Positions 3,001 to 63,977 of a stretch of DNA of 64,000 nt are shown piece by piece (position 1 is the first letter of the stretch; each line of letters begins with the position of its first letter). Source of the stretch: Octopus vulgaris (taxonomy: Eukaryota). The stretch is from the NCBI GenBank assembly GCA_951406725.2, contig OX597836.1:23312001-23376000 (forward strand), in the 5' to 3' direction. The position numbers were made by a program, and so were the translations under genes. The notes below the pieces were generated by a model. That model had not been told where the DNA came from. It saw only the letters and a program-made list of their open reading frames with translations, and searched no databases.

Positions 3001-3383
3001 GAATTGAAAAATATTCTTAGAGGTATCCTTCAACAACTTGTTTTCATCTTTAGAAATAAGAATCAGCAGCAGTGGATCGGTAAACATGTGGCGGAGATAA
3101 TTTTTTTTTTTATTATATGAGAAACTTCAATTTATAGAATTTACGAATTTTTGACATTGGAACGAGATCCAGTTTCATGTACATGTAAGTCGATGGAATC
3201 CGTCTATATAGAGTTCTCTTTACGGGAGAAAAAAAATTTCAGTAAGAGACGCATAATCTGTTAGAGTCCTAAATTCCTGGAATAGTGTTATAAATAAATT
3301 TGTACTCACAAATACTCATAACGTATAATGTATAATTTAAATATTTTATAACTAGAGAGAGAACTCATTCATAACCTGAGACT

Positions 3384-16849: not shown

Positions 16850-16901
16850 TTGTATGTATGTCTGTCTATTTATTTGTCTGTCTATCTATCTATCTATCTA
16901 T
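16635..16901. repeat. (TCTA)n/(TCTG)n microsatellite
   Basis: Read directly. Confidence 0.95.
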
Positions 16902-17936
16902 CGAGATGCTTGAACAAAGTGGTAGTCGGTAGGCGAGAAGTCTGGTGAGTATGGCGCATGGGGCAGATTTTCGTAGCCCAATTCGTTCAACTTCTGCAGG
17001 GTCAGTTGTGCGACGCGCGGGACCGATAGTTGTCGTGGAGAAGAATTGGTCCTTTTCTGGCTGTTGTTGTCGGAGATTCTTATGCATTTCATCAATTTGC
17101 TGACAGTACTTCTCCGCCGTAATGGTTTCGCCTGGATCAAAAAAGCTGTGATGGATGAGACTGGCCGCAGACCACCAAACAGTCACCGTCACCGTCACCT
17201 TCCTTTGGTGCAACTTTGGCTTCGGGAAGTACCGTGGAACTTCGTTGGCGTCCAACCACTGAGCTGAGCGTTGCCGGTTGTCGTAAAGAATCCACTTTTC
17301 ATCGCAAGTCACAATCCGGTGGAGAAACGGGTCGTGCTTGTAGCATAAAAGAAGGGAAGACGACATTTCAAAACGGCGTTTTTTTTTGGTTGTCGTTCAA
17401 TTCGTGCGGCACCCATTTCTCAAGTATTTTTGTTTCTCCAATCTCTTCCAAGTGGTTGGAAATTGTCGTAAACGCTACGTCTAATTCAGAAGCAAGCTCT
17501 CGAATAGTTGTTCGTAGATTGGCTTCGACTAAGGCTCTCAGTTGATCATTGTCAACATTCGATGGCCGACTACTACGCTTATCATCTTCAAAACTCTCGT
17601 CACCGCTACGGAATTTCTTGAACCACCATTGTTCTGTACGTTCATCAGTGGTTCCTGGGCCAAACGCATCGTTGAAATCGCGAGGTCTTTCAGCAACTTT
17701 TCGGCCTAGCTTGAACTGGAATAAAAAATTGTGCGAATTTGCTTTTTGTCCATGTAGTATTCAACGTTCCGGAAAAAATGGCCTAATTATTAAAAAAAAG
17801 AAGAGTAACACGATTAGATCGATCAAAAAAGGGCTTCAAAATAATACATAAAGTCAAAGTAATTTAACGAAAATTAATTTGAAAATACATAATTTAAAAT
17901 CAAAATTTTAAACTACCCAAGAACTTTCTTAACAAC

Positions 17937-22369: not shown

Positions 22370-23116
22370 CAAGCACGCCGGGCTAAATACGTTGTGGGTA
22401 TTTCGTCTGTCTTTACGTTCTGAGTTCAAATTCCGCCGAGGTCGACTTTGCCTTTCATCCTTTCGGGGTCGATAAATTAAGTACTAATTACGCACTGGGG
22501 TCGATGTAATCGACTTAATACCTATGTCTGTCCTTGTTTGTCCCCTCTGCGTTTAGCTCCTTGTGGGTAATAAAGAAATAGGAATTTCGTCTGTCTTTAC
22601 GTTCTGAGTTCAAATTCCGCCGAGGTCGACTTTGCCTTTCATCCTTTCGGGGTCGATAAATTAAGTACCAGTTACGCACTGGGGTCGATGTAATCGACTT
22701 AATACCTATGTCTGTCCTTGTTTGTCCCCTCTGCGTTTAGCTCCTTGTGGGTAATAAAGAAATAGGTATTTCGTCTGTCTTTACGTTCTGAGTTCAAATT
22801 CCGCCGAGGTCGACTTTGCCTTTCATCCTTTCGGGGTCGATAAATTAAGTACCAGTTACGCACTGGGGTCGATGTAATCGACTTAATACCTATGTCTGTC
22901 CTTGTTTGTCCCCTCTGCGTTTAGCTCCTTGTGGGTAATAAAGAAATAGGTATTTCGTCTGTCTTTACGTTCTGAGTTCAAATTTTGCCGAGGTCGATCT
23001 TGCCGCTCATCCTTTCGGGGTCGATAAATTAAGTACCAGTTACGCACTGGGGTCGATCTAATCGATTGGGTCCCCTCCCCCAAAATTTCGGGCTTTGTGC
23101 CTAAAGTAAAAAAGGA
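22370..23116 (+). repeat. Tandem array of the SINE B body, 184-bp period
   Basis: TTTCGTCTGTCTTTACG recurs at 22401, 22585, 22769 and 22953. The first three units are near-identical; the fourth ends in a different 3' tail. Confidence 0.92.
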
Positions 23117-26188: not shown

Positions 26189-27366
26189 TTGGATCGTCCC
26201 ATAAATAATGTGGGCTTTATATTATACTTCTTTTATTTCTCAAAATTAAGATAAACAAAGTTCTTTTTTAATCTAAAATATACTCTCCTTCGTTTTCTAC
26301 AATGCTCTTCAATCTGTCTGGCAGACTCGCTAGGCCCTTCTTCCATAATTCTCTTGTCCGTGACGAAAAATACTCCTCCAGTACTCTTCTGACCTTGAAG
26401 AGTGCTGAATAAATGATAATCAGATGGGGCAATGCCCAGCGAATATGATGGGTAGGGTATCGTTTCCTATTCAAACTGCTCCAGCCTTTGGAATGTCATC
26501 CTTGATGTATGTGGCCGAGCATTATCCTCACGGAAGAAGACCTTTTATCTTGAAATCAAAGATGGTCGTTTTTCTTCTAGCGCTGACTTAAGCCGCTCAA
26601 GCTGCTTGCAGTAGATCCCCTTTGTTATCGCTTGGTTTAGGTTTAAAAGTTCAAAGTGGATTAAATCTTTCATATCCCACCAAACAGATAACAATACCTT
26701 ACGTGGGTGAAGACCTTCTTTACCCTGGTGTGCCGGTGTTTCTCCTTTCCCTATCGACTGTCTTCGACGCTTAACAGTTTTGTAGAGAACCCACCAGTCA
26801 CTATTCGGTAAAAAAAGTTCATTGGTGAGACGTGACAGCAAAGAAGCGCACACATTCACTCTCTGCGCGCGATTAGACTCAGAAAGTTTGTGAGGAATCC
26901 ATTGATCCAATTTCCTGACTTTTCCGATGGCACGCAGGTGTCAATGAATGGTTGACCGACCACATCAAAGCTTCTCTGCTAGTTCCTCAACAGTTACGAT
27001 GGGATTTTGTTCCACCAGGGTTTGCAGGACGTCCTCGTCGAGCTCTACACATCTTTCTGGACGAAGATTCTCTTCTTGGTTGTAGTTTCCGGCATTAATA
27101 TTCCTCGCACTTTCCGTTGCATTGTTGCCTTTATTGAACTCATAAAGCAAAATATGCCGAATATACTCCTTTGGCACTTCCATTTTATCTTTGAAAAACT
27201 AACTGTTAAAATCGAACTGCACTCTTCAAAACTTGCACTAAGAATAACTGCAGGGTAAAATTACTACTTGCTTTTATAGCAAGTTGATGCAGCTAGTTTA
27301 TCCCGTCCCCCTCCGACTTTTAGTTCGGACAATTGAAAAAAACTGCATTATTTAGGGATGACCCAA
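26189..27366 (-). mobile_element. Mariner element with both TIRs and a disrupted transposase
   Basis: TIRs TTGGATCGTCCCATAAATAATG ... CATTATTTAGGGATGACCCAA flanked by TA. ATG at 27183 (MEVPKEYIRHILLYEFNKGNNA), then WIPHKL and KVLLSVWWD. Frameshifts and deletions. Confidence 0.92.
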
Positions 27367-33960: not shown

Positions 33961-34059
33961 ATGAGGTGTGTACTTATGGTTTTATTGCACTTCATGGATT
34001 AATATTATACGCTCCATTTTTTCACTTTACTTTCAAACAGGTCGTTTGCAACTCTCTTT

Positions 34060-34098
<39 letters not shown>

Positions 34099-34208
34099 TG
34101 TCTACCTATTTGTGTTGCATTTGTGTGTACGGCACAATGGCCTTTTCCATTTCAGTGAAATCTGGTGATTAAATAAAACGTGCAATACGATGAAAAGCAT
34201 CTCTCTCT

Positions 34209-34274
<66 letters not shown>

Positions 34275-34279
<5 letters not shown>

Positions 34280-34465
34280 TTTATTTTATATAAGGAGTTT
34301 ATACTAGAACTGTTTCATTCAAAAGAAATCATCAAGAGCTTCCTGATGATTTCTTTTGAATGAAACAGTTCTAGTCCTGTAGAAGCTCCTTCTATAAAAT
34401 AAATTAATTTACTCTGCTATGTATTGAGTACCTTATTTACTGTGGTTAACCCCGACTCAACCCGG

Positions 34466-34470
<5 letters not shown>
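34275..34470 (+). mobile_element. Short element H3 with a canonical-core HHR and an inverted partial copy, between TA tracts
   Basis: 34304-34334 is the reverse complement of 34344-34374, and the homology extends imperfectly outward. AATAAA lies downstream of the HHR. Confidence 0.75.
34336..34388 (+). ncRNA. Type I hammerhead ribozyme, canonical core
   Basis: GAGCTTC | CTGATGA | T-TTC-TTTT-GAA-T | GAAA | CAG-TTCTAGTC-CTG | TA | GAAGCTC. 7-bp stem I, 4-bp stem III, GUA site with the predicted cut after 34381. Confidence 0.8.
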
Positions 34471-34505
<35 letters not shown>

Positions 34506-34513
<8 letters not shown>

Positions 34514-34790
34514 ATATTTCGGAATGGTCATATTGCCAGTTTAGCCAATAAAAACACACGCACTATATATTTGGTGTTATTTTGCTTCAGTGTTATTTAT
34601 TTTTTACATTAATCTTAATCTTATTTCGGCCAGAGTTCTTTCGTCACACTCCTGTGACCGCATCAGTGGTCCTTTGTTTTCTTCTTTCGTATTATTGGCT
34701 AAACTGGCAATATGACCATTCCGAAATATAACAATATCTGTTTCAACACACGACTTCACATAAAAAATCTTGCACAACAAATATTTAAAC

Positions 34791-34791: not shown

Positions 34792-34827
<36 letters not shown>

Positions 34828-34828
<1 letters not shown>

Positions 34829-35483
34829 GAGGGGTAGTCAAAAATTATCCTCACTTTTGCCATAACATATCTTCATTATTGTCACACTGCCTTCTGCGCA
34901 TGCGTGGTTGTAGTTGGTACTATTGTGGTCACGTGATCGAAGTTTGAGCCGGATCGCGCCATTTTTCTTTCTGGCTTTACATGGCCGCTCCACTAGCAAT
35001 GTCCACCAAAGAGGAACAAACAGCAACGATCCGAGAGATGATAATGGGGAAACGGTTCACCATTAGCATCTCTCCAGCTTGCTGAATCTTCTCGTCAGTG
35101 GTGGAGGTTGACAGGCGTCTTGCTCCCTCTTCGTGCGTCACCTTTGTCCGGCCCCTTTTAAATTTCTCCATCCACTCATACACACTTCTACGCAGTAGTG
35201 TACTGTCTCCGTATTGTGCTAAAAGCCTCCGATGAATTCCAGCACTTGACACACCTTCCGACCAGAGAAATCGGATCGCTGCTTTTTGTTCTTCTTTGCT
35301 GTACATTGCTAGAGGAGCGGCCATGCTTACACTGTAAAGTACAAAAGAAAAATGATGCGATCAGACTCAAACTTCGACCACACGACCACAATAGTACCAA
35401 CTACAAGCACGCATGCGCAGAAGGCAGTGTGACAATAAAGATATATTATGGTAAAAGTGCGGAAAATTTTTGACTTCCCCTCA
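34828..35483. mobile_element. Non-autonomous mariner derivative with ~200-bp inverted 5' ends
   Basis: Termini CGAGGGGTAGTCAAAAATT / AATTTTTGACTTCCCCTCA with TA flanks. Minus-strand ORF 35324-34977 (MAAPLAMYSKEEQKAAIRFLWSEG...SVYEWMEKFKRGRT) is a mariner N-terminal HTH. The ATG region is repeated on the plus strand at 34981. Confidence 0.9.
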
Positions 35484-35640
35484 TATATATATATATAAGT
35501 AGTTGAATGAATTATCCTAGTATGGTTAACCGATACCCGGGTAGCAAATTCACGTCAGAAAACACGGTTGAAGCTACATGCCAAGGGCAGAAATCACGTG
35601 CTTTCGTGTGGAAATTTGTGTGTTTTTTTTTACTATAAAC

Positions 35641-35783
35641 AAATGAAAGAATGGAGTCGAACGACGATTTAACAAAATTCCTTTATTCTCGACATATGCT
35701 GCAGTCTTAAGAATATGCTGTCTTCCAAACATATGTCGAGAATAAAGGAATTTTGTTAAATCGTCGTTCGACTCCATTCTTTC

Positions 35784-35787
<4 letters not shown>
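35641..35787 (+). mobile_element. 58-bp perfect inverted repeat with an HHR 3'-half remnant, abutting (TA)n (H5)
   Basis: Arms 35641-35698 / 35730-35787. The right arm begins CAAA-CATATG-TC-GAGAATAAA (palindromic stem III, GUC triplet, polyadenylation signal). Confidence 0.6.
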
Positions 35788-35833
<46 letters not shown>

Positions 35834-51294: not shown

Positions 51295-51850
51295 TAACAA
51301 GGCTTCTAACAAGCTACGACTAAAAATTATTCAGTGATCCGTATTATGACATCAGAACTGTATGTTGTCCACATCCAAGATACTCCATGTCCAACGGCTC
51401 ATTCCACTTAGTTGTAAGGAGACACCACGGGATAATATAATCCACCGTTGAAAACTACCATAGAACTGTGGAGTTAATGATTATTTAGTTAAATTCTAGC
51501 TCTGAGTTGGGTTCTTGCGATGGATATAACCAAAATAGATGCTGTGACCTCTAACTTGCCTCTCTATATTTATAACAATGCTTCTAACAAGCTACGACTA
51601 AAAATTATTCAGTGATCCGTATTATGACATCAGAACTGTATATTGTCCACATCCAAGCTACTCCACCTTCAACGGCTCATTCCACTTAGTTGTAAGGAGA
51701 CACCACGGGATAATATAATCCACCGTTGAAAACTACCATAGAACTGTGGAGTTAATGATTATTTAGTTAAATTCTAGCACTGAGTTGGGTTCTTGCGATG
51801 GATATAACCAAAATAGATGCTGTGACCTCTAACTTGCCTCTCTATATTTA
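51295..51850. repeat. Tandem duplication, 2 x 278 bp
   Basis: TAACAA.GCTTCTAACAAGCTACGAC at 51295 and 51573, with few substitutions. Confidence 0.92.
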
Positions 51851-52474: not shown

Positions 52475-55617
<3,143 letters not shown>

Positions 55618-63194: not shown

Positions 63195-63977
63195 GTGATC
63201 TGATCAATAAGTATCCGGACTGTTACTGAAGCACGCAGAGTGAAGCCGCTTGGCGCAAATTGACCTTGGACACTGCTGTGCAAGCGTACTTAGTTTTAAC
63301 GTTCTAGCTCACTTTCGCTGTGTAGCGTGTAACCACGACAGAGGAAGTTGAGCAGAGAATCTGCATCAAATTTTGCCAAGAGCTTGGCGATACTTGCTCA
63401 GGGACTTATGCAAAGTTTCCAAAAATTTCTCATCGTTCACAACACAATCAAGAAGATCTTGTGCAACTGAAACCGGTGTGTCTTTTTTCGTCAGCTGAAA
63501 ACAGTTTTGATACAAGTTCGGCAGACACGCGTCTCATACCCAAATCTTCAGTGATAATGGACTGAACTGAACCGTAACTAATCTGCACATCCTCTGATAA
63601 TTTCCCCTCATAGCTGCATGCACATCTGCAATGTTTTTCTCAATTCTGCCGGTTGCGGGTCTCCCAGAACGCTCATCAATATCGACATTTCTCCGGCCAT
63701 CTTGGAAACGTCTGAACCACTCGTACACTTGTGTGCAGCTCATACACTCCTCTCTATGTACTTTCTGCAACTTTGTGCAGGCCTCTGAGCAGGTATTGCC
63801 ATGACAGCTTTCTCTGTCATGGTCAATGCGACGATCACACGCTACACACCTTCCTTCCAAGCACTACTGTAACAGCGGAAGTGAACTCGAGCATTAAAAT
63901 TTAGTGCAGATGCATAGCAGAGTTCAAGGTCAATCTTTGCCATGCAACTTCATTACTATGGCAACAACCCGGAAACT
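63194..63977. mobile_element. Non-autonomous mariner derivative with inverted 5' ends
   Basis: Plus strand EVEQRICIKFCQELGDTCS (~63343). Minus strand GNTCSEACTKLQKV..QVYEWFRRFQDGR..DERSGRP. Diverged long inverted arms. Confidence 0.8.

Follow-up and report, generated by a model that had tools for sequence, protein, structure and literature searches.

A hammerhead motif beside its own inverted copy

In the stretch of 64,000 nucleotides of Octopus vulgaris DNA that was analysed (the window), a type I hammerhead motif on the plus strand was observed head-to-head with an inverted and damaged copy of itself, with microsatellite DNA on both sides. The features at the locus, with positions counted from the first letter of the window, are the following:

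34200-34278, no strand: (TC)n followed by (TA)n microsatellite from the repeat scan, left target flank
34279-34337, minus: inverted, 5'-truncated copy of the element's 3' end, without the tail, ending at the short 3' terminus
34303-34334, plus: antisense arm of 32 nt, pairing perfectly with 34344-34375; inner portion of the inverted copy
34336-34388, plus: type I hammerhead motif, predicted cut after A34381
34337-34340, no strand: self-complementary AGCT marking the inversion junction; it supplies the first four bases of the 5' strand of stem I
34369-34376, plus: loop III with palindromic CTAG, making an extended helix III between two copies possible
34389-34404, plus: A/T-rich stretch with AATAAA that closes the terminal repeat; the short 3' terminus of the family lies here
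34405-34467, plus: one-sided tail; family contigs reach 6 nt beyond it and then run into (TA)n
34468-34509, no strand: (AT)21 microsatellite from the repeat scan, right target flank

With reference to the plus strand, inspection of the motif showed that stem I pairs 34336-42 with 34382-88 over 7 bp, and that the core is made up of CUGAUGA (34343-49), GAAA (34362-65) and GUA (34379-81). Stem II (34351-53/34358-60) consists of 3 bp with a U.U at its base (34350/34361) and a 4-nt loop, while stem III (34365-68/34377-80) has 4 bp and closes an 8-nt loop III. The conserved type I core (CUGANGA, GAAA, NUH) is present, and the predicted fold displays the type I topology of three helices with an open-ended helix I. 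At this locus the inverted arm takes the place of the native 5' side of helix I, which bears on the loop 1/loop 2 tertiary contact of canonical motifs. The motif is the sole match in the window with a stem I of at least 7 bp and a stem III of at least 4 bp, and none of 60 dinucleotide shuffles of the window, scanned on both strands, yielded a match of equal strictness, which speaks against a chance hammerhead-like string. The description in the earlier note of a full-core hammerhead, the best formed in the window, is borne out, as all the parts it named are present; a looser scan gave four additional positions, with weak stems in every one. The seven pairs of stem I that it counted are present at the locus, but the seventh, G34336-C34388, is contributed by the inversion junction; the non-inverted upstream consensus, taken from contigs of the sequencing runs X1, X11 and X9, has T at 34336, so stem I of the family has 6 bp. 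The predicted cut site at A34381 lies 23 nt before the short 3' terminus.

An Rfam scan of the window returned no match at the gathering score. The best hammerhead model was RF00008 (clan CL00010), with 14.4 bits against a gathering score of 48.5 (E 0.63), and of the 60 matches around the locus up to E 10, mostly to microRNA and other hairpin models, none was a hammerhead. A C/D box snoRNA was also considered and rejected: UGAUGA was found, but CUGA is absent before the 3' stem, and SNORD102 reached 19.3 of 47 bits.

The perfect antisense arm upstream of the motif, previously given as 31 nt, is real; it is 32 nt long and forms the inner part of an inversion that continues imperfectly to 34279/34404 (about 125 bp, 83% over 136 columns, E 7e-36). 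Since the inversion extends that far, the upstream part is a whole second hammerhead copy, damaged and on the minus strand. Compared with the sense copy, it shows 4 substitutions, a 5-nt deletion and a 1-nt junction difference (2 indels), by which C3 of the core has become U, the deletion has fallen at stem III, and three substitutions lie in and behind the 3' strand of stem I. Owing to the C3 substitution and the loss of part of stem III, the minus-strand copy would be no working hammerhead. All five to six arm differences fall in the antisense copy, and the sense copy is identical (0 differences) to two contigs of run X9 over 34337-34467. Under neutral decay with equal arms, such one-sided differences have a P of about 0.016-0.03, a post hoc value for this single locus. 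Any of several processes could account for them: errors made in synthesising the second arm, use of a different template, conversion from other copies of the family, assembly polishing or selection. The outer ends of both arms lie in (TA)n, which bears on any target-site duplication.

The repeat family in sequencing-run contigs

We observed that the stretch 34276-34468 is present in 21 of the 24 listed runs, which represent 14 studies and 6 organism labels. Some of the runs that contain it comprise 35-65 million letters and match 0.56-0.69 of its words, and presence even in such small runs points to many copies; none of the runs containing it is recorded as RNA, run X11 being RNA by guess only. 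Family contigs were aligned from four of the 24 runs, amounting to 1701 in X1, 310 in X6, 58 in X11 and 3 in X9, and the contig details given here rest on the 20 of 53 loose ends and the 27 of 2097 pieces listed. Upstream of 34337, the loose ends listed enter a common non-palindromic sequence in X1 (21 contigs, agreement 0.66), X11 (4) and X9 (1), and this sequence is the normal body of the element; among these loose ends, family copies without the inversion therefore occur in three of the four runs. Contig depth drops toward 34337, which may be an edge effect and is given no weight as a sign of truncation. The upstream family sequence was reached for 30 nt only, and no RT or GIY-YIG frame was linked to the family.

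At the other side, the family displays two 3' termini about 65-70 nt apart, each running into (TA)n. The short terminus falls at 34401-34411, with loose ends into (TA)n behind 34401, 34404, 34408 and 34411; the long terminus lies 6 nt past 34467, and a loose end behind 34467 was detected in all four runs (29, 6, 3 and 2 contigs). At the locus, the inverted copy ends at the short terminus and the tail is carried by the sense copy only. Two variants at 5% or more were found inside the motif, at 34354 and 34370, and both lie in loops, for which a hand calculation gives a weak chance value of about 0.05; the variant at 34370 makes the palindrome of loop III longer. A further common variant above the same threshold sits at 34397, in the A/T-rich end.

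The fold-back at AGCT 34337-40 is likewise found in other copies. G at 34335 was recorded in 13 contigs of X1 and 3 of X6, at distances from the end of the contig that reach 32 and 27 letters, respectively, and an extra A after 34336, which gives a perfect palindrome, occurs in 3 and 2 contigs of the same runs. Among the pieces listed, X1 pieces 1-3 span the junction, each with different private changes. In none of the four runs does a contig reach from end to end of the stretch, and 34276-34296 has zero depth in each of them, so the exact locus was not independently seen in another run. Summed over contigs, the junction reaches 1.3% (X1) and 4.5% (X6) of the depth found at 34339-45; depth is no copy number, and because perfect palindromes would collapse in such contigs, junction depth gives no frequency.

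Motif scans of contig collections gave no match in the metagenome set, none and then two in the viral set and one in the genome set, no match being related beyond the pattern. One of the viral contigs, L002, carries at 3001-3055 a well-formed, GC-rich hammerhead-like motif that has only the core pattern in common with the octopus family. Four short family motifs had no match in the supplement of PMC8557442, nor in that of PMC13282606, which contains no sequences. The family was not found described, and it may already be named in Repbase or Dfam, which lay outside this search.

Penelope-like architecture and a proposed origin of the inversion

We consider it very likely that 34279-34467 is a 189-bp insertion stub, lodged in (TA)n, of a high-copy Penelope-like family, or else of a non-autonomous element that such a family mobilised, with a probable Hydra-clade character. 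The hammerhead in a terminal repeat, the adjacent inverted and 5'-truncated copy, the one-sided tail and the interspersed multi-copy family were all found, as in EN+ Penelope-like elements (PLEs); with no family ORF recovered, the case for a PLE origin is one of architecture, and the clade is a lead. EN+ Penelope-like insertions are described with an inverted 5'-truncated copy beside the 5' end, a one-sided tail and a (TA)n bias (PMC8557442), and palindromes at head-to-head junctions have been interpreted as self-priming (PMC3846280). The octopus locus agrees with them in the head-to-head inversion, the junction palindrome, the tail at one end, the (TA)n target and the hammerhead near the 3' end. 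It differs in that the stub is extremely short with both copies cut at stem I (PMC8557442, PMC3846280), in that the copy at the locus has no ORF, and in the tail, which is about 65-70 nt in the octopus family as against 30-40 bp published for Penelope-like insertions. A hammerhead on each strand is not peculiar to the octopus, as Penelope-13_HM also has an inverted 5'-truncated copy with one on each (PMC8557442), and dual hammerheads on opposite strands are reported from Schistosoma (PMC4209133).

The lead to the Hydra clade comes from details of the motif. Penelope-9_HM, Penelope-1_NV and Hydra-1_aMil share the U.U with a stem II of 3-4 bp, the 4-bp stem III and the (TA)n target. By a count made by eye in the supplement of PMC8557442, stem III strands identical to those of the octopus motif occur in 4 of 25 families of this clade, (TA)n is preferred by 26 of 27, and the U.U at the base of stem II is present in 14 of 25. 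The weakness of stem II, to which the earlier note had drawn attention, is thereby confirmed as 3 bp plus U.U, but it is normal for this clade. Loop III, on the other hand, has 8 nt in the octopus motif against 1-3 nt in all 26 Hydra-clade rows, and the family sequence differs from that of Hydra-1_Obim of Octopus bimaculoides. The minimal and dimeric PLE hammerheads (PMC4209133) are also alike in being type I, in having a palindromic helix III that suits dimers and in occurring mostly as dispersed truncated copies; helix II is 3 bp in the octopus motif and 7-8 in the Schistosoma minimal hammerheads, and, unlike theirs, the octopus helix III is able to close in a single molecule.

Animal non-LTR retrozymes (PMC7229834; bioRxiv 10.64898/2026.07.22.740005) likewise carry a type I hammerhead within a repeat, and axolotl HHR_Amex2 has the same U.U at the base of helix II. 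The octopus locus differs from them in having no tandem array, an inverted instead of head-to-tail arrangement and a one-sided tail. A non-LTR retrozyme at the locus was rejected, with no tandem array and no second copy elsewhere in the window.

How such an insertion may arise can be outlined from these comparisons. A protein of the element, for which we infer reverse transcriptase and endonuclease activities, would nick AT-rich DNA and begin reverse transcription at two sites separated by about 65-70 nt. For an anole element, cutting and extension of both strands of the target have been shown in vitro, and the tail of that element corresponds to the distance between two RT start sites (PMC11167929). 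Synthesis of the cDNA would break off prematurely at the AGCT of stem I, which lies 3-6 nt upstream of the core, and the self-complementary cDNA end may then prime itself or anneal to a second cDNA primed on the opposite strand. The outcome would be a head-to-head palindrome with a tail on one side only, in which the antisense arm is the partner copy, and the ribozyme would be locked in any read-through RNA as a by-product of insertion. Whether the AGCT of stem I is a priming hotspot for the inverted arm is more tentative, and we are inclined to doubt it. We conclude that the hammerhead adjoins its own mirror image because of the insertion mode of such elements, not as a demonstrated off switch, and that the inverted stub is a known by-product of insertion in a family not found described.

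Predicted folding, the lock and the host context

The earlier claim that the arm would sequester the core in plus-strand read-through RNA is supported by the folding energies. The active secondary fold makes up a predicted fraction of about 5% in 34336-34395 and of about 1e-28 in 34300-34395; without the arm the active fold is predicted at 1.8 kcal/mol above the ensemble, and with the arm at 39-44 kcal/mol above it. Read-through RNA would form a long hairpin and hence would not cut, and a perfect helix of 32 bp would act as a permanent lock rather than a switch, a lock that the insertion mechanism would produce with no need for selection. The action as a monomer that had been suggested is uncertain: with its 8 nt, loop III could close, but helix III is predicted at -1.4 kcal/mol as a hairpin against -12.8 kcal/mol as a duplex of two copies, being far more stable between copies because loop III carries the palindromic CTAG. 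These energetics would suit the dimer mode proposed for metazoan PLE hammerheads, which as single motifs show no or low cleavage (PMC4209133).

The view that the arm is a built-in switch protecting a host intron was not sustained, for the arm is the partner copy typical of Penelope-like insertions, copies without it exist, and no host exon was detected. In all, 298 stop-to-stop frames of the window (at least 50 aa, not low-complexity) were compared with Pfam, and the matches above the cut-off were to mariner domains only; one frame gave weak Atlas matches only (0.85 or less). No RT was found among these frames, as is expected of a stub. A crude splice scan produced five unconvincing candidates, and small exons could be missed. 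With no host gene found in the window, protection of an intron is unsupported. Separately, a possible 21-nt micro-exon on the plus strand was noticed by eye at 34015-34067, with a pyrimidine-rich run, CAG (34038-40) and, at 34062-67, a GTGAGT that resembles a donor site; it failed the crude splice filter and, if real, would make the stub sense-intronic.

A milder form of this view grants that the inversion is a by-product of insertion and supposes that copies lying in introns in the sense orientation are retained chiefly where the arm silences the ribozyme. The thermodynamic strength of the predicted lock agrees with it, as do the intact sense copy beside a damaged antisense copy, with the inner 32 bp over the core perfect, and the under-representation of retrozymes in Xenopus introns (bioRxiv 10.64898/2026.07.22.740005). 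We nevertheless regard it as improbable, given that no host gene was detected in the window, that unlocked family copies exist among the loose ends listed, that metazoan PLE single hammerheads cleave poorly or not at all, as stated above, that one PLE hammerhead requires its protein (PMC11167929), and that 42-44% of the Xenopus retrozymes are still intronic (bioRxiv 10.64898/2026.07.22.740005); a single point mutation would also be a simpler way to inactivate a ribozyme. A search of titles and abstract openings did not find a retroelement hammerhead sequestered by antisense in introns. Equally improbable to us is the combined reading in which the AGCT hotspot gives birth to locked short insertions, and selection then retains locked intact sense copies in introns while unlocked ones are removed.

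Again, the palindromic unit could be a mobile mini-element, MITE-like or non-autonomous, that was amplified from one founder instead of being rebuilt at each insertion, since a single junction site is found repeatedly in runs that carry two organism labels. This is very unlikely, because the tail on one side only, a 63-nt extension on the right, leaves the ends asymmetric, the junction registers vary among contigs (with or without the extra A, and one with 12 gap letters), and non-inverted copies exist; on the grounds of its ends and of the non-inverted members, a MITE was rejected.

An assembly fold-back chimera or a chance hammerhead-like string within a palindrome is the least likely of all. 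In its favour, the outer left arm is absent from all contigs of the four runs, and an assembly polished with repeat reads may have had its sense copy pulled back to the family sequence. Against it, the two arms are set apart by 4 substitutions and 2 indels, which is not what a folded-back read would look like, the same junction occurs in contigs of two other runs, the shuffles gave no equal motif, and both family variants inside the motif lie, as a weak indication, in loops.

Returning to the insertion stub of a Penelope-like family, the single locus is of little weight, as it is debris from a retroelement whose architecture has been described before. As a test set the family could nonetheless be useful: its contigs are near-identical and number in the thousands, its two 3' termini are sharp and its inversion point in stem I recurs, and these features bear on two questions that stand open in the literature, namely the priming of inverted Penelope insertions and the role of their hammerheads. 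If locked copies were enriched in sense-intronic positions, this would indicate selection on ribozyme activity in host transcripts, and if hotspot and selection both held, an insertion by-product would act as a genome-wide safety catch.

The window itself consists of animal DNA rich in microsatellites, in which mariner remnants occur. Immediately after the right (AT)n, a small MITE-like element with perfect 46-nt terminal inverted repeats occupies 34506-34737, followed at 34814-35497 by an element derived from mariner, whose inverted arms are long (88-89%) and which has a Mos1-type HTH frame on the minus strand (34980-35360), and at 35634-35794 by a 65-nt inverted repeat, 97% complementary, with a spacer of 31 nt. 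Broken remnants of mariner transposase (Transposase_1, HTH_48) lie on the minus strand at 16893-17760, 26548-27198 and 63537-63863. The repeat scan further listed a 278-bp tandem duplication at 97% (51295-51850) together with a TA-rich array of 3.1 kb (52475-55617). Lastly, a 184-bp unit is present in 3.6 tandem copies at 97% at 22397-23065, and presumably resembles an octopus SINE.
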